Of a stretch of DNA of 64,000 nt, positions 674 through 61,847 are shown one piece after another. This stretch comes from a virus (Duplodnaviria > Heunggongvirae > Uroviricota > Caudoviricetes), in IMG/VR virus record IMGVR_UViG_3300037453_000505, one strand, 5' to 3'. Within the stretch, counting starts at the first letter, position 1; the number at the start of each line of letters is the position of its first letter. A model generated the notes under the pieces. It worked only from the letters and a program-made list of their open reading frames with translations. It did not search any database and was not told the DNA's origin. The position numbers were made by a program, and so were the translations under genes.

Positions 674-1237
674 ATGCACAGAGATGAAAATGTTAGTGCT
701 GCTACTAGCACGGCATACTGAGCAGTAAATCTAAAGGCATTAGCTGACCATTGATACGCTTATCTAGGTAGAGATTTCGATGATTATTATTTTGTTAGGA
801 GAATAGGCGATGGTTATATAATTAAGAGAGTTATAACACTAGATGATAGTGATATGTCAGAAAGAATGCGGGAATGATTTGATGCTCACGATGCTTGGGT
901 TGATGCAGTTAGAAATGGAGATACAGATGAGAGTTATGAAAGTCGACAGAACGATATAGATATTCGAGATGAAGAAGATAGTGAAGATTATCACGATTGC
1001 TGTCAAGAAATTGTTGACATTCTTCATTGATTATGATTATGGAATGGTGATTATTCAAGCTATAACTGAAATTATTTAGATGAGTTTAACACTCAGACAA
1101 TAGATGTAAATATGCTAGATAATCTCTATAATAAACTAGATAAAAATGACGTCTTCAATGAAGAATTATGGAATGATATAGAGAAAACATATTGACTACA
1201 CCAGGTAGAATTTTTAGCTGCTGAACCTATAAGATAA
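674..1237 (+). CDS. Hypothetical acidic protein inside the ubiquitin-like cassette; possibly the conjugated substrate or Ubl component.
   Basis: Continuous ORF of about 187 aa under code 25 (MHRDENVSAATSTAYGAVNLKALADHGY...AAEPIR). No motif recognised. Its position between E2 and E1 is the only basis for the functional suggestion. Confidence 0.35.
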
Positions 1238-1269
1238 TGCCAGAAAGAAACTTTGACAGGGGGTTAGAT

Positions 1270-1893
1270 ATGTTTAACCCTAATCTTTTTAAAGAAAAAA
1301 AGATTTGAATCATAGGTGCTTGATGAATTGGGAGCAATTCAGCCTATGTGTTGAGTAAAATGTGATTAAAGGTTAAGGTCTGCGATTTCGATGAGGTCGA
1401 TGACGTGAATACTAGTTCACAGTTTTATTCAATGGAACAGTTAGGGAAACCTAAGGTAGAAATGTTAAAAGAAAACATAAAGAAAATGTGTGATGAAGAT
1501 ATTGAGATAGTAAATAGCAAGTATGAGAAATGAATGTTTGATGACTGTGATATTTTAATCTTAGCTTTAGATAGCTTAGCAGTTAGAAAACAAGTAATTG
1601 AAACTTGTAAGGACACTCAATTTATTCTTGACACTAGAATGGTTAAGAAAATAGCACAAGTAAATCTATTGTATGGTATTCAGAGACAGACACGAATGGA
1701 AAAAGAATGGAGAGAAGATGCCGACGCTAATAATGCAGGGACTCGTTGCACAGAAAAAGCAGTTGCTTTCAATGCATTATGAATGGCTGCATTAGTTGGT
1801 AGTATTGTGGCAGATAAACTTAATGGTAAAGATTTGAAATATCAATACACCCTAGATTTAGAGAGCTATAATTTATATGTTTTTAATTCATAG
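1270..1893 (+). CDS. E1-like ThiF/MoeB family adenylyltransferase (minimal E1).
   Basis: MFNPNLFKEKKIGIIGAGGIGSNSAYVLSKMGLKV...QLGKPKVEMLKENIKKM...DCDILILALDSLAVRKQVIETC... The Rossmann GxGxxG motif uses two TGA codons as Gly. The PKVE motif and the D-x-D-x-L motif are typical of ThiF/E1. The gene ends with TAG. Confidence 0.8.
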
Positions 1894-1895
1894 GT

Positions 1896-3137
1896 ATGAG
1901 AGAGTGAACAGAAAAATTAAAGCCTATTACTCAGGAAGAAATAAAGCCTATTGATTATAAAGAAATCAATGAGAAAATCTGACTGAATAATATTAAAGTT
2001 CATCAAGCTCCTGTTCTCACTATCTCAGCTTGGTGTCATAATCATATCAGAGCATTACATAAAAAGTATCCATCAGAAGAATGGACAGCTATTTGTAAGA
2101 TAGTTAATCATTGAGAAGGACAATTTGAAATGGTTGATATGATACACCCTTGACAAAAAACAACTAGCTGAGATGTAGAAACAACTGATGAATGAATGGA
2201 ATGGGCTATTGACCACTTGTTAGAACGTGGTGAAGATTTGTGAGAATGGAATTGTATTCTACATTCTCATCATCATATGGGTTGTTTCTGGTCTGCAACA
2301 GATGACAATGCTAGACTAGGAATGAACGATTGAAGAATGCTTATGTGGGCTGTGGTGACAGCTTATAAGTGAGAAGAAATAGATTATAAAGGTTGCCTTA
2401 ACTTTTATAAGCCATACCCTATTGAGATAGATTGTGATATAGAATATTACACAGAAGATTTATATTGACAGAGAGAACAATGGGGAGATTTTATAGAGAA
2501 TAGAACAAAAGAAATCTATAATGAAATGGTGTTGACAGATGAAACATTAAAGGAATATAAATGCGAATATGATTATGATAACCTATTAAAATATTTAGGT
2601 ATAGACATAACAGATGAGCTTAAAGTTAATGCTAATGTAGTTCAAATGAAAATGCCCTGCGAGTGATATGAAAATAGGTTGAAAGAAATTATGGAAGAAG
2701 CTAAGGAAAAAGTTCAGGAAGAGGTATGAGCGCCGGTAGATAATGAGCTTGTTGATTGGTCTAATTGGTCTGATAATTTACTAGAACAGTTAGATGAAAA
2801 CAAGAAAAAATCTGAGGTAGTTAAAACAACTAAATATAATTATGACTATACCAATAGCTGGGACGATTATGAATATAATCGTTTTTATAATACTAAGCCA
2901 ACTAAAGTTAGTAATAGAGATTTCTATGATAACCCTGAAGAAAAGTATTGCGAGTTTAGTTCAATAAACTACCCTACTAAGTGGAGTTTAATAAATGCTT
3001 ATGGTTTGAATGAACAGTTTGAATTTAGGTTGAATGCTGAAAAAGAACGAGAGGTCTATAACACCCACTATAAAATCTGGTGCTATGTATGAGATGAGTT
3101 AGAAGATTTATACACATATCCAGAAGATTATTTATAG
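1896..3137 (+). CDS. JAB/MPN (JAMM) metalloprotease; deubiquitinase-like.
   Basis: About 413 aa. It contains ...EWNCILHSHHHMGCFWSATDDNARL..., the JAMM zinc motif H-x-H-x7-S-x2-D. It starts 2 nt after the E1 stop. Confidence 0.7.
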
Positions 3138-3154
3138 AATAGTTCGGAGTGGGC

Positions 3155-3236
3155 TTAAATGGTGGTAGAGAGATAGGTTATTTTCCGTTGTCCTATCAAT
3201 AGCTGCTAAACAAATAAAGCTCTGCCACCACTTAAG
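3155..3236. terminator. Structured element downstream of the cassette: a 14-bp long-range stem (ggcttaaatggtgg / ccaccacttaagcc, one mismatch) enclosing an inner 6-bp hairpin (gatagg...cctatc).
   Basis: Inverted repeats seen in the sequence. Function is inferred (terminator or small RNA). Confidence 0.3.
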
Positions 3237-3327
3237 CCTGCTCCTAATAAAAAAGAATTAAAAGAAGAGTTGAAATTAGAAAACTAATGTTTATTATAAC
3301 AATAGTTTTATTTTTTTATTTATTAAA

Positions 3328-7739: not shown

Positions 7740-7965
7740 AGAAATGTCATATTTAGATGAATGATTCAAGTGGATACGTTGATATGAAGGGTATTATTCC
7801 ATTAATAAAAGTGGAGATATAGCTAGTTATCATAAACTCTGAGGTAGGAAATGATGGGTGTTGAAAGAATATCCCCAATCATTTCTTAAACCTCAGGTGC
7901 AAGACAAATGTTTAGTAGTTAATCTTAATAATGGAACTTGACAAAAAAGATTTAGAGTTAAGAAA

Positions 7966-10526: not shown

Positions 10527-10624
10527 TCTAATTGGAACGTCGGACGCCAATTTCTAAAGAGTCGACCACAATTGATTTGTGTGATTGTTTTTTATTGCAT
10601 TAGGGGGCTTCGGCTCCTTGATGT

Positions 10625-10715
10625 GGAGAGATGTCAGAGTGGTTGAATGTGGCGACTTGCTAAGTCGTTAACCGGGTGAGAAACCGGTTCGTAGGTTCGA
10701 ATCCTACTCTCTCCG
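10625..10715 (+). tRNA. tRNA-Ser (anticodon GCU), type II with a long variable arm.
   Basis: Cloverleaf folded by hand: acceptor ggagaga/tctctcc, anticodon loop ttGCTaa, long variable arm aaccgggtgagaaaccggttc, T-arm gtagg-ttcgaat-cctac. Confidence 0.75.
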
Positions 10716-10719
10716 AAGA

Positions 10720-10790
10720 TGGGAACTAGCCTAATGGTAGGGCAACAGGCTTTGAACCTGTGTGTCTAGGTTCGACTCCTAGGTTCCCAA
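10720..10790 (+). tRNA. tRNA-Gln (anticodon UUG).
   Basis: Perfect 7-bp acceptor tgggaac/gttccca, anticodon stem acagg/cctgt with loop ctTTGaa, T-arm ctagg-ttcgact-cctag. Confidence 0.75.
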
Positions 10791-10798
10791 AGTTATAT

Positions 10799-10875
10799 GC
10801 GGGTGTGACGTAATTGGTATAGCGTAGCAGACTTCAGCTCTGCCCGTACGGGTTCAAGTCCCGTCGCCCGCTCCA
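10799..10875 (+). tRNA. tRNA-Gly with anticodon UCA, which reads TGA codons.
   Basis: Acceptor gcgggtg/cgcccgc with discriminator U and an encoded CCA. Anticodon stem gcaga/tctgc with loop ctTCAgc. T-arm acggg-ttcaagt-cccgt. The GCGGG acceptor plus U73 are glycine identity elements. Confidence 0.75.
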
Positions 10876-10876
10876 T

Positions 10877-10953
10877 AGGAGATTAGCTCAGATGGTTAGA
10901 GCACTTGTCTGATATGCAAGGTGTCACTGGTTCGATTCCAGTATCTCCTACCA
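10877..10953 (+). tRNA. tRNA-Ile (anticodon GAU).
   Basis: Acceptor aggagat/atctcct, D-arm gctc-agatggtta-gagc, anticodon loop ctGATat, T-arm actgg-ttcgatt-ccagt, encoded CCA. Confidence 0.75.
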
Positions 10954-10956
10954 TAT

Positions 10957-11028
10957 GTACCAGTAGCTCAATGGTAGAGCAGTTGGCTGTTAACCAATTG
11001 GTTATAGGTTCGAGCCCTATCTGGTGCG
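10957..11028 (+). tRNA. tRNA-Asn (anticodon GUU).
   Basis: Acceptor gtaccag/ctggtgc, D-arm gctc-aatggta-gagc, anticodon loop ctGTTaa, T-arm atagg-ttcgagc-cctat. Confidence 0.75.
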
Positions 11029-11035
11029 GGATATT

Positions 11036-11112
11036 GTGAGTGTAGCTCAATTAGTTAGAGCGCTTGTTTGTGGAACAAGAGGTTGGGAGTGCGATTCTCC
11101 TCACTCACCCCA
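11036..11112 (+). tRNA. tRNA-His (anticodon GUG); no G-1 is encoded in the genome.
   Basis: Perfect acceptor gtgagtg/cactcac with discriminator C and an encoded CCA. Anticodon loop ttGTGga. The base at position -1 is T. Confidence 0.7.
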
Positions 11113-11118
11113 ATTTAT

Positions 11119-11189
11119 GGCGGTATCGTTTTATGCAGGTAAGACGGCCTGGTAATGGCAGAAATGTGGTGCAAGTCCCTTTGCCGCCC
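11119..11189 (+). ncRNA. tRNA-sized structured element of unresolved identity; possibly a degenerate or atypical tRNA.
   Basis: A 7-bp terminal stem ggcggta/tgccgcc encloses 57 nt with internal hairpins (gtttta-tgcagg-taagac; gcc-tggtaat-ggc). I could not fold a canonical D/anticodon/T cloverleaf by hand. It sits between tRNA-His and tRNA-Arg. Confidence 0.3.
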
Positions 11190-11193
11190 CTAT

Positions 11194-11267
11194 GTCCCCA
11201 TAGCATAATTGGATAATGCAACAGCCTTCTAAGCTGTGGATTGGTGGTTCGAGCCCACCTGGGGATA
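11194..11267 (+). tRNA. tRNA-Arg (anticodon UCU).
   Basis: Acceptor gtcccca/tggggat, D-arm gcat-aattggata-atgc, anticodon stem acagc/gctgt with loop ctTCTaa, T-arm ggtgg-ttcgagc-ccacc. Confidence 0.75.
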
Positions 11268-11290
11268 ATTTAGATTTAATTATTATAAAA

Positions 11291-13471
11291 ATGAGAACAT
11301 TACTATTATTTAGATGAGCACCTTGATGTGGAAAGTCTACATTTATAAAAGAACATTGATTAGAACCATACACTTTATGTGCAGATACTTTTAGAATGTT
11401 GTATTCTTCTCCTACATTATATGTAAATGGAGAGGTACATATTCCACAAAATGTAAATGGTGTCGCTTGGGATAACTTATTCTCTTGTCTAGAATATAGA
11501 ATGCAAAATGGAGAGTTTACAGTTATCGATGCTACAAATTCTAAAACTGTGGAGATGAATAAATATAAGAAACTAGCTGATGAATATAGATATAGACTTT
11601 ACATTGTCGATATGACAGATATTCCTATCGAAGAAGTAAAGAGAAGGAACAAACTTAGACCAGAATGGAAATGGGTACCAGAAGAAGCTATTGATAATAT
11701 GTACTCTAGATTTTCTACACAAAAAATTCCTAGCTGAATTAAAGTAATCAAACCAGAAGAGGTAAATGATTTATTAAGATGGAGAGCTGTAGAAATTCCA
11801 GACACATATAAAGAGGTAGTACACATAGGAGATATCCATTGATGTTATGAAACATTAATGTCTGCTCTACCTAATGGAATTGAAGAAGATAAATTCTATA
11901 TATTCCTATGAGATTATTATGAAAGAGGTCCAGAAGATGTAAAGACTTTAGACTTTATGGAAAGTATAATAGATTTGCCTAATGTTGTATGTCTAGAATG
12001 AAATCACGAAACTCATTTATGGACTTACGGTATAGGTAAAATCCCTAGAAGTAAACACTTTATGGGATATACTGTGAATGAATTAATCGAATGAGGATGG
12101 GATGCAAAAAGAATGAGAATATTTATGAAGAAATTACTTCAATGTTATTACTATACTTTCAAAGGTAAAACTGTTTTATGTACTCATTGATGAATAAGTA
12201 ATTCTAATTTTGAAGAATTGTTCCCATTAGGGTTAACTTGTCTTGCTACAATAGATTTAATTCATTGAGTAGGTTCTTACAATGATACTTGAGAATGTGA
12301 CAGTAACTTTGCTAAAGGAGATATATTAAGCTGTCACTGACATAGAAATATTGAAGATAAACAAATAGAATGAATAGCTAACCTAGAATGATGAGTTGAA
12401 TGGGGAAAAGAATTAAGAGTTGCTATACTAAATGATAAATTAGAAATAGTTAAATATCCATACAAAGATAGAATACCTTCTAAAGAAGAATTCTTCTGAG
12501 TGAAACAAGATATAACTGTGAAACAATTTATTGAGAGCTTAAGAAAAAATAAGTATATCAATGAAAAAAATGTGCAGTGAAATATAAGTAGCTTTAACTT
12601 TACTAGATGAGCTTTTAGCAGAAGCCATTGGGATAGAGAAACAGTTAAGGCTAGATGATTATTCATTAATACTAATACCTATAAGATAGTTGCTAGAGCT
12701 TATAATAAGTTCTTCAATGTAGATGAACAAAAGAGCACAATGCTATTTAGTATAGGACAAAATGCTCACTTCCCTATCGTTGGGTATAAGAAATATAATG
12801 GGTATTTGTGAATAATTTGATACGATGAAGAAAGTGATGAGTTAGTATTCACAAGTAAATCTGAAGTGGGTTGACCTCACGCTCAACGACTTAAAGAAAT
12901 AGTTATAGAGAAAGGTATAGACTTAGATAAGGTAAAAGACTATTTAAAAGAAAACTTTTGTTCATTAGTCTTTGAGGTAATTGACCCTGTGAATGATGCA
13001 CATATTATTAAGTATACTGAAAGAGATGTAATTCTATTAGATTGTGTAAAGAATACTATTAACTTTGAGAAACTAGATTATAATAGTCTATTAAAGTTAG
13101 GAGAAATACTTTGATTCACAGTGAAAGAAAAGTTAGTAGAGTTAAAAGATATGGTGGAGCTAAGAGAATGTATAGATGAATTACTTAATCCTAATTCAGA
13201 ATACAATACTTGAACTCCTATTGAATGAATGGTATTTGTTGACAAAGATGACTTTATGTTTAAGCAGAAATGAGAATACTATCAGCAATGGAAAAAACTT
13301 AGAGCTTTGATATGAGTAGTAGCAAGATGACAAAACTTTACTCATACTTGAATGTTGACAAATCCAGAGATGAATGAGTTCTATTGATGGTTAAAGGAAC
13401 AGGCTTTAACTTGAGAAGAAAACATTATAGAGCTTAGAGATAAGTTCTATACTAACAAAGCTATGATTAGC
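11291..13471 (+). CDS. Trifunctional Pnkp-like RNA end-healing and sealing enzyme with kinase, metallophosphoesterase and ligase domains.
   Basis: About 727 aa under code 25. The N-terminus carries a P-loop, LLLFRGAPGCGKST, with the first Gly encoded by TGA, and VIDATN, which is kinase-like (compare T4 Pnk). The middle region has GDIHGCYETL...FLGDYYERGPEDVKTL...CLEGNHE, the calcineurin-like phosphoesterase motifs GDxHG / GDxxDRG / GNHE. The C-terminus has ligase motifs I (KYNGYLG), III (SLVFEVIDP), IV (EGMVFVDK) and V (FMFKQKGEYY). This is the domain order of bacterial Pnkp. Confidence 0.7.
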
Positions 13472-13604
13472 TAACATAGGGAGTCGTCCACCTAGGCACG
13501 GACGGATAATGTGGGGTATCACACTGTAAATATTGGCTTTAGTATTAGTAATGCGAAGTACAAACATTATGAGTAGTAAGGTTGATATGATATATCTCCC
13601 CTTT

Positions 13605-16600: not shown

Positions 16601-16674
16601 AGGTACGTGGTGTAATGGTAGCACAGGAGCCTCCAAAACTCTTAGATTAGGTTCAATTCCTAGCGTACTTGCCA
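16601..16674 (+). tRNA. tRNA-Trp (anticodon CCA).
   Basis: Acceptor aggtacg/cgtactt (one G-U pair) with discriminator G and an encoded CCA. D-arm gtgt-aatggta-gcac. Anticodon loop ctCCAaa. T-arm ttagg-ttcaatt-cctag. Confidence 0.65.
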
Positions 16675-16697: not shown

Positions 16698-17672
16698 ATG
16701 AAAGTATTATCCCTATTCGATTGAATAGCTTGTGGGTATGAAGCTTTAAATAGAGCTTGAATACCTATCGAAGTTTACTATGCTAGTGAAATTGATAAGC
16801 ACGCAATTAAGGTAGCGACCACAAACCATCCAGACATTATTGAAATTGGTGATGTGTGTGAAGTAAAATGAGAAGACTATCAATGAGTTGACCTAGTTAT
16901 AGGTTGAAGTCCTTGTCAATGATTTAGTATGGCGGGTAAGATGTTAAACTTTAACGACCCCAGGAGTAAGCTATTCTTTGAATTCGTTAGATTAGTTAAA
17001 GAAGTAAAACCTAAATACTTTCTCTTAGAAAATGTGAAGATGAAGAAAGACTTTATCAATATCATTAATGAGCAATTATGGGGAATAACTCCTATAGAAA
17101 TTAATTCTGCTTTAGTGAGTGCTCAAAATAGAAAGAGATTATATTGGGTTGGTAAACTTCAAGAAGATGGGACTTATACTAAGGTAGAAATACCCCAACC
17201 AGAAGATAAATGAATTACATTGAAAGATATTCTACAAGAAGATGTAGATGAAAAATATATTTTAACACAAAAACAAGTTGATATGATTGCTAATTGGGGA
17301 TGATTTGAAGACCCAATCGCTAGTATCAAATGACCAGATGATAAGATGTGAACTCTCACTACACACTGTGGCAAGATGTCTAATGGGATTAAACTAATTA
17401 GATGAAGACCTATAATGCCATATGAACCAGGGCATAGAAGATTAAAATACACAACTTATATAGATAAATGTCCTACTCTTACTACAACTTGTGCTAGTGG
17501 AGACCAAAAGAATGTGGTATTAAATGGAGATGTAATTAGAAAATTGACACCTATAGAATGCGAGAGATTACAAACATTGCCAGACAATTATACTTCTGCC
17601 GCAAGTGACACACAAAGATATATCCAACTTTGAAATGGCTGGACGTGCGATATAATAGCACACATATTTAGT
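16698..17672 (+). CDS. DNA (cytosine-5)-methyltransferase.
   Basis: Motif I LFDGIACG (FxGxG). Motif IV GGSPCQGFS (PCQ, with the first G encoded by TGA). An ENV motif is present. AQNRKRLYWVG is QxRxR-like. The C-terminal PIECERLQTLPDNYT matches the conserved end of C5-MTases. About 324 aa under code 25. Confidence 0.75.
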
Positions 17673-17689
17673 TACTTAAAGTAGCAAAG

Positions 17690-29464: not shown

Positions 29465-29950
29465 CACATTTTATTCTTCTTCATTTAAATCCTCATCTTC
29501 TGTCTTTGGCATTTTACCTTTCAGAGTTTTTGCTATAAATTGGACTAATGCCTCAAAAGCATCAATCTCTGGCAAATGAGAACCGTCTGTGTTGATTGAA
29601 TATATATGTCCTATGATAGAATATCATTCAGTGATAATCAACATAGAGAATATAACAGTAGAAACGAATTCTAAATCTCAAGCTCAAACTCATCTAAGAA
29701 TTACAACGACTATCAAAGGTAGCATCCAGCGAGTCATCTTTTTAAATATCCCCTTCCACATTTTCTTAGATGTTACTTGTGTTTTATCATCTATATAAGC
29801 ATCAGCTATTCAAAAGATATAATCTAGTGCAAGCATAACAGAGAGAATAATTAGGACTTCTCAACTGACATTAAAATATTCTAGCATACTTGCTAATCAT
29901 ACACCTCAGATAGCTGTAGCTACCATTCCCCCTGTACTTACTTCTGGCAT
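29465..29950 (-). CDS. Phage holin (toxin-secretion / phage-lysis holin family, Phage_holin_4-like).
   Basis: MPEVSTGGMVATAIGGVGLASMLEYFNVSGEVLIILSVMLALDYIFGIADAYIDDKTQVTSKKMWKGIFKKMTRWMLPLIVVVILRGV...MLIITEGYSIIGHIYSINTDGSHLPE... matches the holin-4 pattern (A-M-V-L-D-Y-I-T-G ... GY-S-I ... EN). Confidence 0.55.
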
Positions 29951-37618: not shown

Positions 37619-37790
37619 TAATGGAATAATAATTATTATAAAATTACTTTACTGCAACATCTGAAACTATGGTTCAATTACTTCATCAACTTGAACTACT
37701 ACTAGAACTTGACGTAGACCTTCTTCAAGGGATATATTTTATTCAAGTTACTCATCACCATAGATTTCAGTTATTTGAGCTTTCTCGGCC

Positions 37791-39239
37791 TCTATTGGTT
37801 CTGATAAATGTATCAGATGAATAATAATTTCAAGGTCAATAATTACTTGCATCTACTTGTGTTGTACTTTGATTTGCTATTGTTCAAGTTCGTGGAAATC
37901 AATAGTTATTTCATCGTTGATAATACTTACCACAATTAGCCTCACTTAATGTATCTCCACTATTCCATACTGTAGTAGCTCACAAGTTTTTATCTGCTAT
38001 TGTTACCCAAGTTTGTCAGTCGCTACTTAAACTTATAAGTCAGTCTGTGCTACTCCAAAATATTCATCAGCTTTCTATACTTGTTCAATATAGTTTAGTC
38101 CAAGATGATGTAGGCACAGTTGGGGAATTCTTGAAACAACGGACAGAGAAAACGTAAGAACGGTAGTCGCTATTCTGGGGATTAAGAGCAGTCGAACTGA
38201 AGTATAGGTAGTAGGAGCGATTTGCATCGCTACGAGAAGAAGACCAATAGTACCCGCGGGTACCCTGACCGTCGATATTAGTAGTCAAGGGGTAACGTCT
38301 ACCAGCGAAAGGCAACTTCAACGCTATTCCAAAGTTAGTTCAATCAGAACTTCATCCACCTAAAGCTGTCCATATATCATATACAGCTTGCCACTCTGTA
38401 TTAAGTGGTACGTGAAACCCACTTGGACAAGGTCCCCTCATAGCAGAATAGTCCTTATAAGCGTGGAAAGTTCAAATCGCTCAATGAAGCTTCATATCAG
38501 GAGTTCCCCAAGTTCATTGGGTTACTCATCACCAAAGGTTATCATTTTGAACGGTACTCCAATCATAACTTCAAGTTCCTCTGAATGTATCACCCTCATA
38601 ATAATTTCAAGGTCAATAATTTGAAGCATCTACTCTAAAAGAAGTAGCAGGGATATTTCAACTATGTGCAAATCACAAATTATTACCTCGTTGATAAAAA
38701 TTACCACAGTTAGCATCTGTTAATGTATCTCATTGGTTATATACAGTTGTAGCTCATAGGTTTTTATCTTGTATCGTTATGGGATTTGTTCATACAGTTC
38801 AAGGAGAAATTGTTATAAGTCATAAAGCCTGATTTCGCCAAATTCACGTTTGTCAAATTCAAGGATTATATATTCTAGTCCAACTACTATCTGGTATTAC
38901 AGGCGCATCCTTGAAACAACGGATGGTAAACCCTGTAGAACGGTAGTTGCTCCACAGAGGGTCGATGCTAGACGAATTGAAGCCTAAACTATAGGCATAA
39001 TTAGCATTGTTCGGAGTAGAAGACCAGTAACCACCACGAGACCCCGCGCTGCTAACATTGCCGTCACTGTAGCTACGATATCCAGCCATAGGCATCTTTA
39101 AGTAAGTCCCCATAGTTGTGGCGTTCTGTGCCATTGAAAATGTAGAAGTAAGTATCCCACACAAAGCTGACCATTCACTCTGAAGTGGCACGTGAAACCC
39201 ATCTGGAGCTGGACCTTGTGTATCAAAATGTATTGCCAT
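37791..39239 (-). CDS. FISUMP (Fibrobacter succinogenes major paralogous domain, lectin-like) repeat protein of about 483 aa.
   Basis: ORF-track fragments 38859..39239 and 38085..38321 are joined by TGA=Gly into one frame, with a checked length of 1449 nt. It contains ...PAPDGFHVPLQSEW...GGYWSSTP...GFTIRCFKD, then ...ITIQDKNLGATTVYNQGDTLTDANCGNFYQRGNNLGF...CPSGFHVPLNTEW...GYYWSSS...SVRCFKN, then ...VTIADKNLGATTVWNSGD...CGKYYQRGNNYGFP... These are the FISUMP hallmarks IGNQxWMAENL, YGxLYNW, CPxGWHxPSxxEW, GYYWSST and GFSVRC. Confidence 0.65.
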
Positions 39240-42196: not shown

Positions 42197-42262
42197 AAGA
42201 ATTATTAATTTCAAAATAAATATAGAGCCTACATAGAATTTTCTATATAGGCTCATCTTTTT

Positions 42263-44991
42263 TAATATGTCATATATGCAACGTTCTCATCATAGCTAGT
42301 TAATGCAGCATATTCTGCTTCAGTACCTACCCAGATTTGACTTATAGATGTAGTTGTTCAAGTTGTATTAGATGTGATAGCTCAACCTCATCATCCACCA
42401 CCTCATCATTCAGGTTGTAATTCAAGGTTACCTCATATAGCAAGGAAAACAAACTGGTCAATTCCATCTGCCGTAAGGGTTGTATCTGTTTCATAAGGGT
42501 TAGTCACATTTGTTCAAAGTGTCATTTCATATGCAGTACTTCAATTCTCAACTCTTAATATGTAAGTCTGTCAATCCTTAATTGTAGCTGGAGCATTTAC
42601 TGTAAAGTTCGCACTTGGAGTATATGTTGAAGCTAAGTCAAGAGTAATTGTTGCTCAAGTCTTTGCTTGCCATCAGAAATCACTATAAGACATATCTCAT
42701 CCTCAAGCTTGTGCTACAGCATCGTCTACATATTTCTTAGTAGCTGGACTTCAATCATATTCTGGAGTATAAGGCGAAGAATAATCTTGTCAAGTAGCTA
42801 AGAAATATCAAAGTGCTTGAGTTGATGTACTTACTGCAGAAACTGTTTTAGAACTTCAACTTCAAGTTAACGTAAATACTATACTTATATGATATATTCT
42901 ACTTCTATTACCTGTACCAGTCACATCTCAAGTAGCATAAGCTCTTAAAAATGTAGCTTTACTAGAAGATACCGAATATAATGTATATATATTATTACCA
43001 TAATCCAAAACTGGTGTTTTTCAAGCTTTATACCAATCATAAGCTGCGATAGCATTTGTTAAATCTGATGTGCTAGCTATTGAAAATACCTTAACATTAG
43101 TAGCATCAGCTTTCCCTGATATAGTTGTATCCATTGCAGATATCTTATCATATACAGCATTCTTAGAAGGAGCTTCAGTTGTTACTCAATCCCAGCTAGA
43201 ACCGTAAGCTGTATCTGAAACTTGACTTGGATAACTTATATTTACCTCTGTAATTCCTGTTACTTGACCTAAAGTGTTCGTTGTTATCTGTGGAACTTTT
43301 GTAGCAGAACCTTTTGAAGTATATGCTGTTTGTGCAGTTAAAGCATCTTGCTTTCAACCGATAGTCGTATCCATAGCATTAATCTTATCATACACAGCAT
43401 TCTTTGAAGGGGCGTGAGTTGTATCAGCATCCCATCCGCTTCAATATGCCGCATCAGATATTGCACTTGTTCATAACTTACCATTGAAAGTTTGCCAATC
43501 TGCACTACTTAAATATCAATCATTACTAGATGTAGCAGCTCAAAGTTTAGTTTGAATTGTTGTCTTAGTTTCGTCTCAAGTATTTGTGTTACTTGTGTTA
43601 GAAAGTTTTGTCCTTTCTGCAGAAGTAAGGAATAAATTAGTAGAACCTTGAGTAATAGCATCACTTGTTTGAGTAGATGTATTAAAATAATTAGTTAAAT
43701 CTACAGAAGTTTCTCATATCATTACCCAAGTATTATTTGAGTAGATATATTCTTCGTATTTATCTTGTCCACTTCAAACAGGTCAAAGCAAATATATTAT
43801 TGTTGTTTTAATATCTGTAGTAGGCAATGTAGCTACAACTTTAAATCAAGCAAAGTTTGCTACATAATCAGCTACTTCTTGTTTTGTGTATGTTTCACTT
43901 TTTGTATAATAATTTGTTAAGTCGCTTACAGCCTTAGTAATATATCCAGCATCATTAGTTAATGTAGATACATTATCTAAAGGTTGAACTGCAGAATTAG
44001 CTTTAGTTCTAATAGAACCCAAATCTGATATAGTATCTTGCTTTCAAGCTATCGTTGTATCCATAGCAGATATCTTATCATAGACAGCGTTCTTTGAAGG
44101 AGCTATACCTGTTATTCAATCCCAACTAGCGGCATAAGCATCATCTGAAACTGCTCATTGTGTAGCAGCAGATATATTATCGTCTACATATTTCTTTGTA
44201 GCAGGACTACCTGCATAAACAGGTGTATATGGAGTTGAGTAATCTGTAAGCGTGTCTAGATAACTTCCAGCTCAATTTCAACTTCCATAATTTATTCTAT
44301 TAACAGTTCAATTATTTGTTAGTATAAATATTTTATCAAGACTTAATGAACTAGCATCGCCCATTCCATTATCCAAACTCCTTAATCAAGGGAAGATGAA
44401 AGAAATTCAATTAGTAGAATATGTTCAAGAAAAAATATATAGTCATTTTCTTTCAACTGGGTCAGATGGAGTATAATATACTAATGGGTTCTTACCTGCA
44501 TCATACCAATCATAAATATCTTGTGCTGTAGTTAAATCTGATGTTCAATTTAGATAGAAAGTTTTTGTATCGCTTTCTGGGATGGTAACAGCTCAAGTGT
44601 CTCAGTTTACAGAAGTAACTCAACTATTACTAATAGTCATATTACCACTACCAAACGTTAACCCTATTCAAGTACCTGCCACTGCTTTAGCTGCAGTATT
44701 TCTTACAACTACAGACCAAGTTCAGTTAGAATTTAGTTTATAAACATAAACTTCGTCTAATTGATTAGCTGCGCTATTATGGTCGCTTCTACTTCTATAA
44801 TATTGAAATTCAACTTCAGTAGGAGTTGTGGCATCATTTACATATGCCATAAATGCTAGTCTAGTTTGACTTCACGTAGCAGGATTAGAATTAGAAGAAG
44901 CTCTACAATAAACTACTCCATTCTTATTATAAGCAGTTATGAAATCATTCCAAGTCGAACTACCATAAGAAAGAATAACCATATCATCCTG
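42263..44991 (-). CDS. Large tail-fibre protein C (about 909 aa) with three internal about 35-aa repeats of the motif SWD-x3-APSKNAVYDKI-x-AMDTTI-x-GK-x-DA.
   Basis: N-terminus MVILSYGSSTWNDFITAYNKNGVVYCRASSNSN... Repeats ...AYAASWDGITGIAPSKNAVYDKISAMDTTIAGKQD..., ...AAYGSGWDADTTHAPSKNAVYDKINAMDTTIGGKQDA..., and ...TAYGSSWDGVTTEAPSKNAVYDKISAMDTTISGKADA... The C-terminal module ...PSANFTVNAPATIKDGQTYILRVENGSTAYEMTL... is shared with gene B. The start may lie upstream at a non-ATG codon. Confidence 0.5.
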
Positions 44992-45087
44992 TTTAGCATC
45001 CAAGGCATTTTTCAAGTCTGTTTGGTCTGCTAATGTTCAAGAAATATTTCACCATTCTGCACTTGTTTGTGTATTAGAAATTACATT

Positions 45088-47453
45088 ATTAGCGTCAATA
45101 CTAATTCAAGTACCTGCTGTATAAGTTGTATCTGTAGATGAGATTATAAAATTACATCATTGTCATTGACTTACTCATCATCGAAGATTGTTGTTTGATG
45201 TGCTTGACCAATCCCAATCTGAATCTCCATAGCTCCTTGTTATGAATGTACTTGAACTATAATAATTTCAAGGTCAATAATTTGAAGCATCTACTTGCGT
45301 TGAAGAAGTTGTTATAGTTCAACTATGTGGGAATCAATAATTATTTCCCCGTTGATAGAAGTATCAACTATTAGCATCACTTACCTCATCTCAGCTATTC
45401 CATACTTGTGTCGCTCATAAGTTCTTATCTTGTATTGTATACCAAGCAACTCCGTCACCACTTATTGAAATTAATCCATCTATTGTATTATGGAATATTC
45501 AAGCACCTGCTGCTACTGAACTTCAATCATATAATGTTGTCCAACTATTATCTGGAAGAACAGGAGTGTTTTTAAAACAACGTATAGATGCTGCATTAGA
45601 ACGAGCTATACTTGTAACTCTTGCTGAACCACTACCAGCTGAAATACAGTAAGCATCATAAGAATCTGATGCTGTCGATGCCCAATAATATCAATATCAT
45701 TGACTAGAGACACTACCGTCCGTCATTCAACGCAAACCAGCAAGAGTCATTTTTAAATAGTCTCTCAAAGTTGTATGGTAAGAAGGCAAAGATAATGTAG
45801 TGAATAATATTAAAAGTAACGCATCCCACTCATCTTTAGTAGGTACGTGAAATCCACTAGGTGCGGGTCATTGTGTATCCCATCCACATCTTTCTTCAAT
45901 AGTGATATTATCTCCTGCAGTAAGTTCACCCTGCTTAGCATCTAAAGCATTCTTTAAATCTGTTTGGTCTGCTAATGTACCTATAATATTTCACCATTCT
46001 GCACTTGTCTGTGTATTTGAAATTACATTATTATTTGAAATTGATATTCCAGGTCAGGCTGTATATGTTGTATCTGTAGAGCTAATAGTCTTTCAATCTG
46101 CAGCGATTTGAATATTTGTTCAAGCTATTAATTCATCTTGTTTTCAGCTCCAAGTAGTTCTAAGCCCTGTGCTATCAGCTAAGTCTTTTATATCAAAGTC
46201 ACCTGCTACATAAGTTGTATCTGTAGCAGAGATTGTTTTTCAATCTGCCGCAATTTGAATATTTGTTCAAGCTATTAATGTATCTTGCTTTGTATTGTCG
46301 TGATAAGCATCTGTTATATATCAAGCATCATTAGTTAATTCACTAATATTATCATTAGGCTGAATAGCTGTATCAGCTAAAGTACCTTGTGTTGCTGTAG
46401 CAAATTCACTTACATCGTGAGTAACTATATCTCAATAAGTTGCTATTGTATCAGAAGCTGATTTACCCGCAGAAGCGTTACTTCTAATAGTAGATAAATC
46501 TGATATAGCATCTTGTTTTCAATTAAAGGTTGACCAATCTGTTGAAGTTAGGTAACCATCGTTAGAAGATGAAGCTGCTCAAAGTTTTGTCTTTATTGTA
46601 GCATTAGTTTCATCTCAAGTATTTGTTCAAGTTGTGTTTCATAATTTAGTTCTTTCTGCTGATGTTAGGAATAAGTTTGTTACTCATTCTGTAATGTCAT
46701 CTGCAGTTCAAGTTAGCTGACTTAAGCTATCTCAAGGTTGAATAGATGTAGCTCATAAAGCTGCGCCACTTCTAATGGTTGCTAAGTCAAAAATTGTATC
46801 TTGTTTTGTTGTTAATGCTTGTGTGATTACTCTGTTTTCTACAGGGTTAGTACTTACTGAAGACATAGCCGTATCAATAGCTATAGGTCTTTCTGTATTA
46901 ATAAGTAATAACCATTGAGTTCAATCATACGTATAAAAGTCTCAAACCTTTACAGTTTGTTGCTCAACTACAGTAGAAGCTAATCAAGCAGTATATTCGC
47001 TACCATCTGGACGATAGTTAGTTCATCATTGAGCAGCGACTACACTTACTACATAGTAATCTCAAGCACGATATTGATATGGGTTATCTACAGGATTAGT
47101 CATAGGTAATCAAGTAGTACAGTTCCAGTTAGAAAGATATCTTCATCTAGAACCTGCGTTCTGTATATATTCATACAAAACCTTTCATTGCTTTGCGGAT
47201 AGAGCATCTGTAGTAGAAGTCGAATATAAGTTATCCTCTACTCAAGGTACAGATATATCAACAGCCTTATTCTCGTCTGGAGTTAATGCTTCTCAATTAA
47301 CTTTTACAGTTTCAATTACATTAACCTGAGCTCAAGCTTCTATACTATTGATTTTCTCCATAACACTATCTTCTATGGCGAACTCCTTTTTCTCCTTCTG
47401 TATAGAGGTTTCATCTGCAAAATATTGTTGACGTGCTTTTGGCATCAATCATT
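45088..47453 (-). CDS. Large tail-fibre protein A (about 788 aa) with an N-terminal STSTTDALSAKQGK fibre motif, internal repeats and a C-terminal FISUMP lectin-like domain.
   Basis: N-terminus MPKARQQYFADETSIQKEKKEFAIEDSVMEKINSIEAGAQVNVIETVKVNGEALTPDENKAVDISVPGVEDNLYSTSTTDALSAKQGKVLYEY... The C-terminus contains ...PAPSGFHVP... and ...YTIQDKNLGATQVWNSGDEVSDANSGYFYQRGNNYGFP... An in-frame stop follows at about 45088. Confidence 0.45.
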
Positions 47454-47574
47454 TAGTTAAATATTTAAATAGTATCTATATTTAGATTATATTTTTCTTG
47501 CGTTTATCTATAACAAAATAGCCACACCTATACATTAAGTATAGATGTGACTAAAATGTATTTTAATAATAATC

Positions 47575-47920
47575 ATATATTGTACCTCAAATACTTCATT
47601 GACTTCAAGGAATCCATACTTTTAAGACATCTCACGCTGATGCTGTATATGGTCATAAAAAATATTCATCGTGATAAGTTCAAGAAGTGAAATAATAATT
47701 AAACATCTCTACATCATTTAATGATAGAGCATATCAGTGCATACTTCATACTTTTACAAATCAAAGTCATCTGAATGTATATGTAGTAGGTCAAGAAAAA
47801 TTTGTCGTATGTACAGTTCAATATTCTTTACAAGCTTTTGCGAAAGCTCACATTGAGGCTCACGAAACTGATATATTTTTTATAATGCTAGTATCTACTG
47901 AAATAGCATCACTCACTATT
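47575..47920 (-). CDS. Small Gly/Tyr-rich protein between tail-fibre genes B and A; possible fibre chaperone or assembly factor.
   Basis: MGAFAKACKEYGTVHTTNFSGPTTYTFRGLGFVKVGSMHGYALSLNDVEMFNYYFTSGTYHDEYFLGPYTASAGDVLKVWIPGSQGSIGGTIYDYY. Coordinates approximate. Confidence 0.25.
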
Positions 47921-47997
47921 CAAGTTATCTCTCACCAAAGATTATTATTATTTGAACTATCCCAACCAGATGGGCTGGTTGTTCTAATTATAAATGT

Positions 47998-50564: not shown

Positions 50565-50593
50565 TATTGTGTATTTAGATTAAGGAATAAAAA

Positions 50594-56538: not shown

Positions 56539-56722
56539 TATTACACATAATATTAGTAATAACGCTATAAATATATAATATATTTATATTACTGATAAAT
56601 AAGAGAAATACAAGAGATGCTTAATTAATTAAAAGAAAAGGGAAGGCTAATTAAAGCCCTCCCATATTTGAAAGACTAGATTAGTCTAAAAATTCTACAT
56701 CATCTAATCCACATACTTCACA

Positions 56723-58165
56723 AGAGTTAAGTACGCATTTTCCAAAGTTCTTAATGAATCTATATGCTCCTTTATCAACTCACATCCATACTACAGCAAA
56801 TTTAACATCTCCAACAATCTTATTACATTCTCCGAGTTGAGCTCCGATATTATAAGGATTGTCTGGTAAGTATCTAAGCATAGGAGTTCCGTTCTTAATG
56901 CTTCCATTAATAGGTGCATTAGAAACAACTTTACCGTTAGTATCAACTACAGTATATTTTGGCTGGAATACTCCAACTTTATCTTCAGGGATTGTCAACA
57001 TTACAGAGAAGTCGAAGTCGTTAAGAATTGGAAGATATTTGAAAGTAATAGTTGTTCCAGCATATCTAATTCTTGGTAATCCAACATCGATATCATATTG
57101 ACTTCCATCTAAGAATCCAACATTTCCATAGTCTTGGAAATATCCTTGCATCATATGAAGTCCTTCCATAGCTTTCTTGTTCATAGCAACTGTTACGTTG
57201 TTTTTGTACATTCCAGAAATCATAGCTTTATTGATAACGATATCTAAGAAAGCTTGGATTTGATGTCTAGCGTTTGTACATTCAGAAGCTGATTCATCGC
57301 AGCATCCTTCAAGGTCGAAAGCAATCTTTAATCCATTTTCTTGTGCTTTAGCAAGAGCAGGGAAAAGTCCCATAGTCTCCCATTTGTATGTAGAGATTTG
57401 CATATTTCTATCATAGAAAGCTGCGTGTAAGAATTCTTTAATAGCTTCTACATCTCCTTTTCTGAACATAGCATCTACGATAGCTTGGATTCCTCCAGAG
57501 ATAAGGTAGTCTTTGTTCAAGTCACACCAATTGAATTCGTGAGAAATAGAGATAGTTCTGAAGAATGCAGAATAGTAATCCATTCCTCCTAATTCTACTG
57601 GATTGAAGATTTCAGTTGCACAACTTCTATCTCTTAAGTAAGCTCCTCTTCTAACTTTATCTCCTGCTTGTAATTGAACAGAAGGAGCTTCTTTCAAAGT
57701 AATAACATTTGTAGCAGAATTAACTGATTCAATGTATAATCCATTAACTGGATTTCCTCCTTGTCTCATAACTAAGATAGTTGAATCTCTATTAACTCCT
57801 CCTAATTTTTCAAGAGAAGCAACTTCAATTTCAGCTCCATTTACAGAAACGATTTCAGTCTCTTCACCACAAATTCTTGGTTCATACCAACCTACTTTAC
57901 AATCTCCATCTAACAAAGTCAATTCACTAGAAGCAGCTAAATTGTCTTTGAATTTATAAGTTACATATACTTCTCCTGTTGTAGGGTCTTTTTGAGGTAC
58001 TACATCGAAGAAAATAGTCTCATATCTTAGGAACTCTTCATATTGTCCCCAAGTTTCGAGAACTCTACCATTAGCATACAATGGGTTCAAAATGTCTTGG
58101 AAGCGAACTGATTTTTCAGATAAACCAGTAGCATCGCAAGGATTACAGCTTTGTGTGCTTGCCAT
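56723..58165 (-). CDS. Putative major capsid protein (about 480 aa), a highly expressed structural protein.
   Basis: This is the only ORF over 400 aa in the standard-code track (56780..58165). It has no internal TGA in 461 codons and extends 19 codons past a single TGA near the C-terminus. It lies directly downstream of the scaffold-like gene and portal candidate. It is preceded by AAAGGTG. Function is assigned by position, size and codon usage only. Confidence 0.45.
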
Positions 58166-59165: not shown

Positions 59166-59587
59166 AATCTTAAATTTATGAATTAAAATACGAATAGATT
59201 TTACTAGCTATGTTTAGATTTTACTCGCTTCCCTTGCCTACCAACTCAAGGTACTATCCCATAGCTAGCTAATCCATTCAACCACCATCACCATTATGCG
59301 TCTACGCATCACTTATAAAAGGTGTCCAATTATCACCTTTTCTATATATAGATTATAAATTTTAAGTTTTTTACTATAACTTTTTAAAATAAAAAGAAAA
59401 ATCTGAGTTCTAAACCCAGATTTTCTTTCTATATTTTATTCTTCATCACATTCTTCATCTCGGATGTTTTGTCATCGTATCGACATTTTTATTGTTGTGG
59501 CAATATAAAATCGAGCTGACTTTCATCTACTTGCTCTGTAGGATATGCAGAATTTACATATGGCGCTTGTGATTGGTCTGGATTAGC

Positions 59588-61509
59588 TCATTGTGCTTGT
59601 TGCATCATTATAGCAATTTCCTCTTCTGAAGGTTGTCCATTGGTAGGCTGTTCAACCTGTTGTGTCTGTTGTACTTGCTGTTGTGCTTCTATTTCTTTTT
59701 GCTGAATGTAATCTTTAATTACATAACTATCGTCAATATATTGTTTTTGTTCATCAGTTGACATAGCTTTAAATCCTTTAAGTCCTGCATAATCTGCAAC
59801 ACTTTCAAGGAATGCTCTATTATCAATATCAGGTAATCCTGTAATAGGGTTAGTAGCGAATGCTGAAGTGTTCTGCATCATAGTCAATAATCATTGAACC
59901 TTAGAAGCTTTAGTTTCTTCAACACCAATATCTGCTGAACATACAATCTTAAATTTCTTATCTAATTCAGATAAGTTGATTACATATTCTTCATCTTCGT
60001 TCTGCACATAAGCTACACTAGCTCAACTTTGTTTAGCAAGTCATAGCCAATGGTAAAACAACTTAGCATAGAATCTACCTATAGATTTAATCATAGGACT
60101 AAGTCTAGCCTTAGAAGCATTAACTCTTTGTTCTGCTCAATATCTTGAACGTTCAATTTTTCATTCTCAACCTAGAACATATGAGTTAACTCAACAAATA
60201 GTATAGGCATCAGCTTTGATATTCTCAAACTGATTCATAGCTAATTGAAGGATATTGTAATCAGTAAAGTCTATCTTTGTAATAGCATTATTCATTCCTG
60301 CATATGATGGATTGATTGAATATACCTTTCATTCATCATAACCAATACTTGTAGGAGCATTACCTGTGGTAGGGTCGGTAATAGCTCATTGAACTGCAGC
60401 TAATACAGGATTCAAATGTCTATAAACAGCATCTGCAATAGAATTAAATAAAGCATTACACTGTTTCTGATGTCACATAACTTTCTTTCAAATTCCACTT
60501 GGAATACATCAAACTCACTTTTCAAATGTTAATTCTATAAATGGTCAATCTTTTCCAGAAATAGCAAAGTCTTCTCAATATTTGAAAGGACTATCCCCTG
60601 AATAAACAAAATAACCATTTACCATAACCATAAGCTTATCACCTATGTATAAGTCAACTACTTCACAGTAGCTAGAAGTATCCAAAATATTAAATGTATC
60701 GTCATAAATCATACCCGTAGGAGTTCCATCACCCAGGTATCCCAAATACGTTGCGGAATACGCATCAATATCATATATCTTTGTAAAATCTGCTTTACTA
60801 AGTGGCATAGGTGCTTCTAGAATGGCTGATTTCTTTTTCTCTACTTGCTTTCACATTCAATCCTTTCAATCCCATATAGGATAGAAAGCATCTTTTAATC
60901 AATCAAATGGGATAAATCTTCTTCTAAATTTCTCTGGTGCTTTATAGAAATCTGTAGCTCAAACGCTATAGAACATTTCAAAAGCTGACACAGGGAATAA
61001 GCAAGGTATAAATGTAACTACATTATCACCTTCATCATTCTTCATTAAGCTTGTAGTATAACCTGGCATTCCATAAGAAGCTCAAATCAATGAAGCTTCA
61101 TTTCTAATAATTTCATTAGTTTGTTCTGTTTCAGAGATTTCTGTTCCCCGTTGGAAAAATAATTGAGCATCGTCAACTATTTGTGCTTCTACTTCTTCCA
61201 TAGGATACACTTTAGGTCTTAAGTCATTATCATATAATGAAGCCATAAATGTATCGTGAATTGAAGTTATTAAAGGATAAATTTTAGCTGACTTATATTG
61301 CATATTATGTTTCTTAAGTCAAGCTTCATACTCTTTAGAATATAACTTATCCATCTTAATAACATCAAACCATTCTGGAAAGATATTGTCTCTAAAGTGG
61401 ATTAGAATGTTTTTAAGTTTTCAGTAGATGGTACGTTCAGCATCAGTGGAGTTATCTTGGTAGATTTTATTCTTTTTCTCCTGCTCCTGCTTTTTTACTT
61501 CGCTATCTA
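59588..61509 (-). CDS. Putative portal protein (about 640 aa).
   Basis: MENIDSEVKKQEQEKKNKIYQDNSTDAERTIYGKLKNILIHFRDNIFPEWFDVIKMDKLYSKEYEAGLKKHNMQYKSAKIYPLITSIH... ORF-track fragments 61082..61303, 60575..60808 and 59588..59887 join in one frame. The assignment is by size and synteny (large ORF, small gene, this gene, scaffold, capsid). Confidence 0.4.
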
Positions 61510-61514
61510 TATTT

Positions 61515-61847
61515 TCCATTAATTTAGATTAGTAGAATTAAAAATATCTGATGCACTTCTGAGTTTTGTCTCAATCTTTACATCCCTCTTATCCTTAGAG
61601 AAACCACAAATATTATCGATTTCTTTGTAATATTTTAAAAGTTTCTCTTCATATCCCTTCTCTTGGGAATCTTGTAAACGTTTAATTTCTTGAACAAGTC
61701 ATCTAAGGTAAAGCTCTTGAGCAGACATTCATAACTCTTCTTGAACGATTCTGTCTAGCATTTCCTTAGCCTTCTCATTTTCTGGGGCAATGTGTTCTGT
61801 CATAACATCATCTTCCATCTGATTTACATCTATTGACATAATTTATT
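61515..61847 (-). CDS. Small protein (about 110 aa) whose stop overlaps the portal start (TAATG).
   Basis: MSIDVNQMEDDVMTEHIAPENEKAKEMLDRIVQEELGMSAQELYLRGLVQEIKRLQDSQEKGYEEKLLKYYKEIDNICGFSKDKRDVKIETKLRSASDIFNSTNLN. Confidence 0.35.

Follow-up and report, generated by a model that had tools for sequence, protein, structure and literature searches.

Absconditabacteria (SR1) use genetic code 25, in which UGA is read as glycine, and carry a chromosomal tRNA-Gly with anticodon UCA (Campbell et al. [quoted passage not shown] A tRNA of this kind has also been described in a virus. The patesciphage RSA-ATP1, which has an Absconditicoccaceae host, encodes a tRNA-Gly-sup(TCA) for which its authors knew of no earlier report and could trace no origin, and they speculatively derived such phages from suppressor-tRNA phages that infect standard-code bacteria (bioRxiv 10.1101/2024.03.08.584096). 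Suppressor-tRNA phages include those using code 4 (TGA=Trp) and code 15 (TAG=Gln), whose suppressor tRNAs are deployed in standard-code hosts and have been proposed to mediate a switch of code in the middle of the infection (Borges et al., 10.1101/2021.08.26.457843).

Here we analyze a tRNA-Gly(UCA) gene carried by a tailed phage and located in what we term the window, that is, the whole stretch of 64,000 nucleotides under study. The gene shares with the SR1 chromosomal tRNA-Gly(UCA) its anticodon, the set of nucleotides at the acceptor end, a 74-nt body and the anticodon arm, with an identity of 85-92%, and it departs from it in its neighborhood (Ser-Gln-UCA-Ile-Asn-His-Arg, as opposed to the host array UCA-Tyr-Ala-Arg-Glu-Leu) and in three private substitutions, among them those forming a compensatory C11:G26 pair. 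Like RSA-ATP1, the phage is a code-25 phage whose small set of tRNA genes includes one for reading UGA as glycine. RSA-ATP1, however, is 39 kb long and encodes four tRNAs (Met, Arg, Leu and Gly-sup), whereas the family considered here comprises contigs of up to about 81 kb and the window contains eight tRNAs; moreover, the source of the RSA-ATP1 tRNA was not traced, whereas the present one is clearly related to host genes, a distinction drawn from the published description. With the suppressor tRNAs of code-4 and code-15 phages it has in common that a phage-encoded tRNA reads a canonical stop codon, but the present host already translates UGA as glycine, the early genes of the phage are recoded and the residue inserted is glycine. 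Both code-25 phages and one patescibacterial phage with a tRNA-Gly(UCA) have already been published; what is new here, as far as sequences can tell, is the clear host-derived origin of the tRNA and its residence in a tRNA island that varies in content and lies next to an RNA-repair gene. The phage thereby becomes a second, independent instance of a virus carrying the tRNA that defines the altered code of its host, and its tRNA leads back to chromosomal copies in the host, which speaks for capture.

The phage and its tRNA island

The window encodes an HK97-fold capsid protein, a portal and a holin (Table 1), together with an HNH endonuclease, ThiF-like and SPFH proteins. The capsid family falls into approximately 73 clusters at 90% identity, on contigs of up to 81 kb, while 22 kb of the window gave no megablast match among GenBank phages and a search of IMG/VR for relatives of the repair enzyme described below returned no true ones. 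Hence, the window belongs to a tailed phage of some 75-85 kb, from an uncharacterized but common family. UAA is the main stop codon, ending 63 of the 74 ORFs.

Table 1. Coordinates of the features discussed in the text (positions in the window).
Feature	Position	Strand	Basis or remark
ThiF/E1-like protein	1168-1893	+	Pfam
Protein containing HSHHHMGCFWSATD	1896-3137	+	JAMM/MPN-like motif, by eye
Seven-gene tRNA island	10624..11268	+	ARAGORN, Rfam
tRNA-Ser(GCU)	10624-10716	+	island gene 1
tRNA-Gln(UUG)	10720-10790	+	island gene 2
tRNA-Gly(UCA), Absconditabacterales type, CCA encoded	10799-10875	+	island gene 3; ARAGORN, Rfam, cloverleaf
tRNA-Ile(GAU)	10877-10953	+	island gene 4
tRNA-Asn(GUU)	10956-11029	+	island gene 5
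tRNA-His(GUG)	11036-11112	+	island gene 6
tRNA-Arg(UCU)	11193-11268	+	island gene 7
Three-domain RNA-repair enzyme	11291..13474	+	Pfam AAA_33, Metallophos, RNA_lig_T4_1
tRNA-Trp(CCA)	16601..16674	+	ARAGORN, Rfam; eighth tRNA, downstream of island
C5 cytosine DNA methyltransferase	16698..17684	+	PDB alignment to M.HhaI
Holin	29471..29950	-	Pfam Phage_holin_4_1
Tail-fibre-like genes	37644-39239, 42262-47445, 47563-50565	-	Pfam PF09603, paralogue alignment
Major capsid protein, HK97 fold	56681..58165	-	1 TGA in 42 Gly codons; no CGA/CGG
Portal protein	59489..61519	-	PHROG 156/332
Last ORF, probable C-terminal part of a giant protein	61959-63992	-	position relative to portal

The tRNA-Gly(UCA) gene had been placed by the first-pass annotation in a cluster of eight tRNAs, a description that holds for the number of tRNA genes in the window and not for their arrangement, since only seven are adjacent and the tRNA-Trp(CCA), which the annotation had also listed as a separate gene and which both ARAGORN and Rfam recover, lies 5.3 kb away. 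On its downstream side the island abuts a gene for a 727-aa protein in which a P-loop polynucleotide kinase, a metallophosphatase and a T4 Rnl1-type RNA ligase are fused. This repair enzyme matches the kinase domain of Pnkp and a tRNA ligase in the PDB, counts thousands of homologues (about 45% identity) encoded on large standard-code contigs, and is itself encoded with 32 in-frame TGA codons and one CGA. Scanning for promoters and terminators around the island revealed nothing above chance level.

Several other features of the genome deserve mention. In three relatives (L224, L225 and L227), the gene upstream of the portal, spanning positions 1 to ~6230, codes for a giant product, 3,000-3,600 aa long, and one of the copies matches an ART-PolyVal domain; the last ORF of the window is probably the C-terminal part of such a protein. 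The three tail-fibre-like genes contain four copies of a module of ~240 aa resembling Fib_succ_major, with the motifs GFHVP, SVRCFK, DKNLGAT and YYQ-[CGA/CGG]-GNNYGF; these modules look like a paralogous family of receptor-binding domains, and a sequence search of the PDB with one of the repeats gave no match. At the other end of the window, the ThiF/E1-like gene is followed by one whose product contains HSHHHMGCFWSATD, which fits by eye the JAMM/MPN metalloprotease motif HxHx7SxxD and suggests a putative E1-plus-JAB pair in the early region.

A glycine tRNA with anticodon UCA

ARAGORN locates a 77-nt tRNA with anticodon tca exactly at 10799-10875 on the plus strand, and Rfam classifies the same segment as an ordinary tRNA (RF00005, E=6.9e-10, with a score of 57.8 bits where 29 is the threshold). 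The segment folds, at minimum energy, into a cloverleaf with an acceptor stem of 7 bp, a D stem of 4 bp, and anticodon and T stems of 5 bp each, with a 7-nt anticodon loop (CUUCAGC, including U33) and a variable region of 4 nt; the z-score of the folding energy (-1.67) is unremarkable on its own. The acceptor strands are GCGGGUG and CGCCCGC, followed by U73 and an encoded CCA, and U8, G18G19, U33 and the T-loop are all undamaged. The cloverleaf with anticodon UCA, the acceptor sequence, the U73 discriminator and the lack of a long extra arm had all been proposed in the first-pass annotation from inspection of the sequence, and they stand.

ARAGORN cannot separate isotypes for the anticodon UCA, and the "SeC" tag that it attaches to this gene derives from the anticodon alone. 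The anticodon is also the one argument for a selenocysteine tRNA, a reading to which we attach negligible probability: a variable region of 4 nt stands in place of the long extra arm, the acceptor and T stems measure 7/5 instead of 8/5 or 9/4, the discriminator is U73, Rfam assigns the gene to the tRNA and not the tRNA-Sec family, and the 841 in-frame TGA codons found at glycine positions (see below) cannot all be selenocysteine sites. According to Shulgina and Eddy (2021, PMC8629427), Gly-accepting tRNAs with anticodon UCA are recognized by G1:C72, C2:G71, G3:C70 and U73, and Trp-accepting ones by G73 plus A/G1:U72. All four Gly-type elements are present in the phage tRNA, in agreement with the glycine identity first put forward for it, whereas the tRNA-Trp(CCA) of the same window displays A1:U72 and G73, the canonical bacterial Trp signature. 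Regarding the anticodon, E. coli GlyRS uses C35 and C36 as identity nucleotides. The phage tRNA has C35 but an A at position 36, which speaks against charging with glycine; every host tRNA-Gly(UCA) is the same in this respect, and the GlyRS of these hosts would consequently have to tolerate A36. The tRNA sequence supports its assignment as an element-encoded tRNA-Gly(UCA) decoding TGA, and as neither a Trp nor a Sec tRNA.

TGA as a glycine codon

When ORFs of at least 100 aa are considered, the standard code covers 17% of the window, as opposed to 90% if TGA is read through, and dropping TAG or TAA as stops leads to no comparable rescue. At least one in-frame TGA occurs in 73 of the 74 called ORFs, those of the early block included, with about 11 per gene and a maximum of 99. 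Across these ORFs there are 841 TGA (4.4% of all codons), 262 TGG (1.4%) and 619 GGN codons (3.3%), so that reading TGA as glycine yields normal contents of both glycine and tryptophan, whereas reading it as tryptophan yields 5.8% Trp and 3.3% Gly. The heavy dependence on recoded TGA anticipated in the first-pass annotation is borne out by these figures, and the per-gene count of TGA that it proposed, combined with alignments to homologues, points to glycine as the residue inserted.

One line of evidence comes from conserved positions. With TGA translated as X, alignments to PDB entries place it at both Walker A glycines of the Pnkp-type kinase and, in the cytosine methyltransferase, at the invariant glycines of motif IV (GxPCQ) and motif X (GN) of M.HhaI. 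The repair enzyme could be compared with 85 homologues of ~45% identity that use the standard code and have normal Trp and Gly contents. In its 32 TGA columns, glycine makes up 63% of the residues of these homologues (background 5.6%), 12 columns are glycine in 85 of 85 sequences, and tryptophan is not among the eight commonest residues; in the same alignment, Trp accounts for 45% of the residues in the TGG columns of the window, and Gly for 49% in its GGN columns. A similar picture emerges from the capsid family as translated with code 4 by public gene callers, in which 40 columns contain a non-conserved "W" and the other residues at those columns are 65% Gly against a background of 7.9%, whereas three columns correspond to a true conserved Trp. 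Codon exchanges between orthologues agree: 97 of 149 exchanges in 38 ortholog pairs are between TGA and GGN, and in 63 ortholog pairs the top codons sharing the 301 variable TGA columns, each column counted once, are GGA, GGT and GGG, although the events behind these pairwise counts are not independent, owing to shared ancestry.

These data also bear on the possibility of a Trp-inserting opal suppressor operating under genetic code 4, as in many gut phages. Public gene callers do apply code 4, with W at TGA, to this phage family, and the anticodon UCA gives ARAGORN no isotype from which to decide. Yet Trp is essentially missing from the TGA columns of standard-code homologues, the amino acid composition it would impose is the skewed one given above, and the tRNA itself has U73 instead of G73 and a G:C pair at 1:72 instead of A/G:U. 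We regard a Trp suppressor as extremely improbable and, by the measure of these alignments, TGA is a glycine codon in the phage.

CGA and CGG as apparent tryptophan codons

The window contains 58 CGA and 10 CGG codons (68 in all), with sites for example in the repair gene (CGA at residue 533), in the three tail-fibre-like genes and at 52606-54915. A comparison of 63 ortholog pairs, covering 8,418 codon positions of the window, yielded 35 variable CGA/CGG columns. TGG shares 19 of them and Phe or Tyr codons five more, while AGA appears in one and CGT or CGC in none. The CGT/CGC columns behave differently and have AGA/AGG as their partners (21 co-occurrences), while those of AGA/AGG have Lys codons and CGT. 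At the CGA column of the repair gene, 76 of 85 standard-code homologues have Tyr or Trp and none has Arg or Lys, and in the tail-fibre-like genes, which are rich in TGA, CGA and CGG occupy Trp-like positions, with one column of the four repeats reading W/W/CGA/W. One column is a counter-example: the window has AGA there, L130 and L133 have CGA, and distant homologues have Arg. When Arg and Trp versions of the tail-fibre repeats were searched against Pfam, the relevant part did not align to PF09603. Overall, CGA and CGG appear to behave as Trp codons in this phage family, in agreement with the reassignment described for Absconditabacteria. None of the eight tRNAs that ARAGORN finds in the window is a tRNA(UCG), and we found no report in the literature of a virus tracking the CGA/CGG sense-codon reassignment.

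The apparent use of CGA and CGG as tryptophan is also relevant to a further reading of the tRNA-Gly(UCA), as a device for switching code so that TGA-containing genes are expressed in a standard-code host, in the manner of code-4 and code-15 suppressor tRNAs. That role has been proposed for the suppressor tRNAs of other recoded phages (10.1101/2021.08.26.457843; PMC10746230). In the present case we deem it very unlikely, as TGA is found in 73 of 74 ORFs, early block included, and release factor 2 would truncate nearly all of their products; furthermore, CGA and CGG are used as Trp without any phage tRNA to read them, and hence the translation system of Absconditabacterales is needed.

In the capsid gene, TGA is only one of the 42 glycine codons, as compared with a share of 58% over the whole genome (p=1e-14), and neither CGA nor CGG occurs. 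The capsid genes of L224, L225 and L227 show a like avoidance: TGA accounts for 5-9% of their glycine codons, against 30-82% in neighboring genes, and CGA/CGG are again missing. Read with the standard code, the capsid gene of the window would yield an almost correct protein. That the reassigned codons are shunned by the gene with the highest expression suggests a poorer translation of these codons. We lean, with some reservation, towards a scenario in which the phage family follows the Absconditabacteria code in full (UGA=Gly and CGA/CGG=Trp) with a tRNA for the first reassignment only, and in which the capsid gene avoids reassigned codons as their decoding would be slow or costly, the tRNA-Gly(UCA) being an answer to that bottleneck. 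The apparent reassignment of CGA/CGG and its avoidance in the capsid gene provide, in this regard, a natural system in which to study the translation cost of reassigned codons.

Probable host origin of the tRNA

When a single genome of each species was scanned for tRNAs combining the anticodon UCA with an acceptor of Gly type, at least 120 loci came up and, among the matches listed, most record titles named Gracilibacteria, Absconditabacteria or "Peribacteria". The comparison with SR1 and Gracilibacteria tRNAs suggested by the first-pass annotation separates two types. Among the matches listed, the Gracilibacteria type (76 nt) is 68-70% identical to the tRNA of the window, and the Absconditabacterales (SR1) type (74 nt) is 85-91% identical in nine genome copies; the best of 88 Absconditabacterales-type copies from metagenomes reaches 92%. 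The anticodon arm, GCAGA-CUUCAGC-UCUGC, with its unusual G37-C38, is identical in the phage and the Absconditabacterales tRNAs. The pattern used in the metagenome scan required GTAGC, where the window has ATAGC, so that only host-type copies could be recovered by it; a pattern that matches the phage copy is, for instance, ATAGCGTAGCAGACTTCAGCTCTGCCCGTACGGGTTCAAGTC. No host copy identical to the phage tRNA was found among the genome and metagenome copies compared.

In the nine genomes, and in those metagenome contigs with enough context, the host tRNA(UCA) heads a conserved array, UCA-Tyr-Ala-Arg-Glu-Leu, which indicates that the host copies are chromosomal genes. The neighborhood of the phage gene is different, and the array was hence not copied as a whole, although the phage tRNA-Arg(UCU) resembles the host tRNA-Arg(UCU). 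One metagenome match with a different tRNA neighborhood (L155) was rejected as a phage copy because it encodes RecA and is host chromosome. The type of the tRNA and the use of CGA/CGG as Trp lead us to infer that the host of the phage belongs to the Absconditabacterales (SR1).

Among 15 distinct members of the tRNA-Gly(UCA) family, all 315 stem cells pair (315/315), with seven pairs having changed on both sides. The phage tRNA has three private substitutions, two of which (T11C and A26G) turn the U:A pair at 11:26 of the D stem into C:G, the third falling in the D loop. Such a compensatory pattern is the expected product of selection for a working tRNA after capture and, given that two of the three private changes make up this pair, the gene probably came from a host by capture and has been maintained in working order.

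A tRNA island of constant position and changing content

The region of the repair gene was compared in six distinct relatives, two of which are represented by a further, duplicate contig, and all of them are TGA-recoded. The closest, L132, comes from another sample, with a repair protein 96% identical; it has the same seven tRNAs within 10 kb, and its UCA tRNA is identical at 77 of 77 positions. In the others, the tRNAs within 10 kb are Gly(UCC), Ser, Arg, Trp and one odd tRNA in L134 (repair protein 90% identical); Pro, Tyr, Ile and Arg in L130 and its duplicate L131 (76%); Pro, Ile and Arg in L133 (75%); Gln, Ser, Cys, Leu and Gly(UCC) in L128 and its duplicate L129 (68%); and Gly(UCC), Ser, Cys and a tRNA with anticodon UUA in L135 (68%). 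Thus, the tRNA-Gly(UCA) is restricted to the near-identical L132, whereas relatives with repair genes 68-90% identical have either an unrelated tRNA-Gly(UCC) or no Gly tRNA at all within 10 kb, and its absence from them marks it as dispensable for the lineage. Its derivation from the tRNA-Gly(UCC) of these relatives by mutation of the anticodon was considered and rejected, as the tRNA bodies are unrelated. Across L128-L135, the tRNA genes precede or flank the repair gene, sitting immediately before it in most loci and after it in L135. The island, in short, is constant in position and fast-changing in content, and the tRNA-Gly(UCA) is a lineage-specific gain.

Such a distribution could also be that of a neutral passenger, acquired from a host not long ago and serving no selected function in the phage: the gene is confined to one shallow lineage (the window and L132), in an island with a fast turnover. 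We consider this unlikely, since the tRNA has diverged by 8-15% from every host copy compared with it and shows no damage to its structure, all stems pair, two of its three private changes compensate each other, and both the invariant nucleotides and the encoded CCA are intact.

Two tRNAs of these relatives are peculiar in themselves. ARAGORN assigns the anticodon UUA to the gene at L135:14235-14307, which would decode the stop codon UAA; a real ochre suppressor there would be odd, UAA being the main stop in the window. The odd tRNA of L134 (12313-12385) has an abnormal anticodon loop, and its sequence is unlike that of the UUA tRNA.

Why the phage might keep the tRNA

The first-pass annotation had offered, as one rationale, adaptation to hosts in which decoding of UGA as glycine is limiting. 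TGA is indeed the sixth most used codon of the phage and its commonest glycine codon, but its share (58%) falls inside the range of host loci (26-82%) and its frequency is only 1.17 times that of the sampled host genes, so that these figures do not bear the rationale out. Within the phage, the share of TGA among glycine codons is 62% in the late minus-strand block and 49% in the plus-strand block (p=9e-6), and it reaches 75-83% in some structural genes. Of the eight phage tRNAs, about half correspond to codons that are enriched in the phage (AGY, AAC, TGG and TGA), whereas for CAA, ATT, CAT and AGA a phage tRNA is present and the codon is not enriched. The small excess of TGA and the matching of only half of the tRNAs make codon supply a weak rationale. 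The avoidance of reassigned codons in the capsid gene, on the other hand, suggests a fit with the idea of limiting decoding, without proving it.

An alternative motive for retention is counter-defence or insurance, with the island and the kinase-phosphatase-ligase keeping the tRNA pool intact under cleavage or depletion by the host or by shut-off. The tRNA(UCA) would then be kept not for codon matching, but because loss of UGA decoding would be lethal to a phage with 841 TGA codons. Phage T4 offers a precedent, for it combines a tRNA cluster with a Pnk/Rnl1 tRNA-repair pathway, in which Pnk and Rnl1 repair tRNA-Lys cut by the anticodon nuclease PrrC. The present phage likewise unites a tRNA cluster with kinase, phosphatase and Rnl1-type ligase activities, although these are here fused in a single protein that abuts the island. 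The location of this T4 Pnk/Rnl1-like enzyme directly downstream of the island, the persistence of the linkage in L128-L135 in spite of their differing tRNA content, and the weak matching to codon usage all speak for insurance. However, the anticodon loop is the same as that of the host, with no changes that would evade a nuclease, we know of no cognate anticodon nuclease for the present host, and the linkage may reflect nothing other than a permissive insertion site. Insurance is hence a tentative possibility, less likely to be the motive than not to be. It concerns the reason for keeping the tRNA and is compatible with its identity as tRNA-Gly(UCA).

Whatever the motive, we are fairly confident of the explanation as a whole, namely that this is a functional, host-captured tRNA-Gly(UCA) reading UGA as glycine on an SR1 phage of ~75-85 kb, where it adds to or safeguards the decoding pool. 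The gene would have been captured from a host chromosome into a fast-turnover island beside the RNA-repair gene; its transcription would fall to the host RNA polymerase, and its charging with glycine to the host GlyRS, and the product may then add to, or safeguard, the pool that decodes the commonest glycine codon of the phage.

Public records and other UGA-Gly phages

The approximately 73 capsid clusters show this phage family to be widespread in public assemblies, and its gene calls there (P0001-P0090) use code 4, with W written for Gly at every TGA and, presumably, R at CGA and CGG. In these calls, relatives of the repair protein contain 5-7% "Trp" and 1.5-3.7% Gly. Because the code applied is not the right one (W stands for G and, probably, R for W), the proteins of the family are systematically wrong in public databases. 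A capsid homologue, P0042, is listed at NCBI as part of a Methanobrevibacter MAG, apparently through a binning error.

Searching IMG/VR with a 17-mer of the anticodon arm returned five matches, all of them chance occurrences inside coding sequence and none in a tRNA. IMG/VR does contain two contigs with other Gly-type UCA tRNAs. One is L002 (IMGVR_UViG_3300036985_004989), a 21-kb contig from an unrelated, small code-25 phage with terminase and portal genes, whose tRNA at 7794-7867 is a different Gly-type tRNA(UCA). At 2657-3283 this contig encodes a collagen-like protein in which 24 TGA codons, read as glycine, restore perfect Gly-X-Y repeats. As judged from these tRNA genes, the data suggest that phages may have gained UGA-Gly tRNAs more than once.
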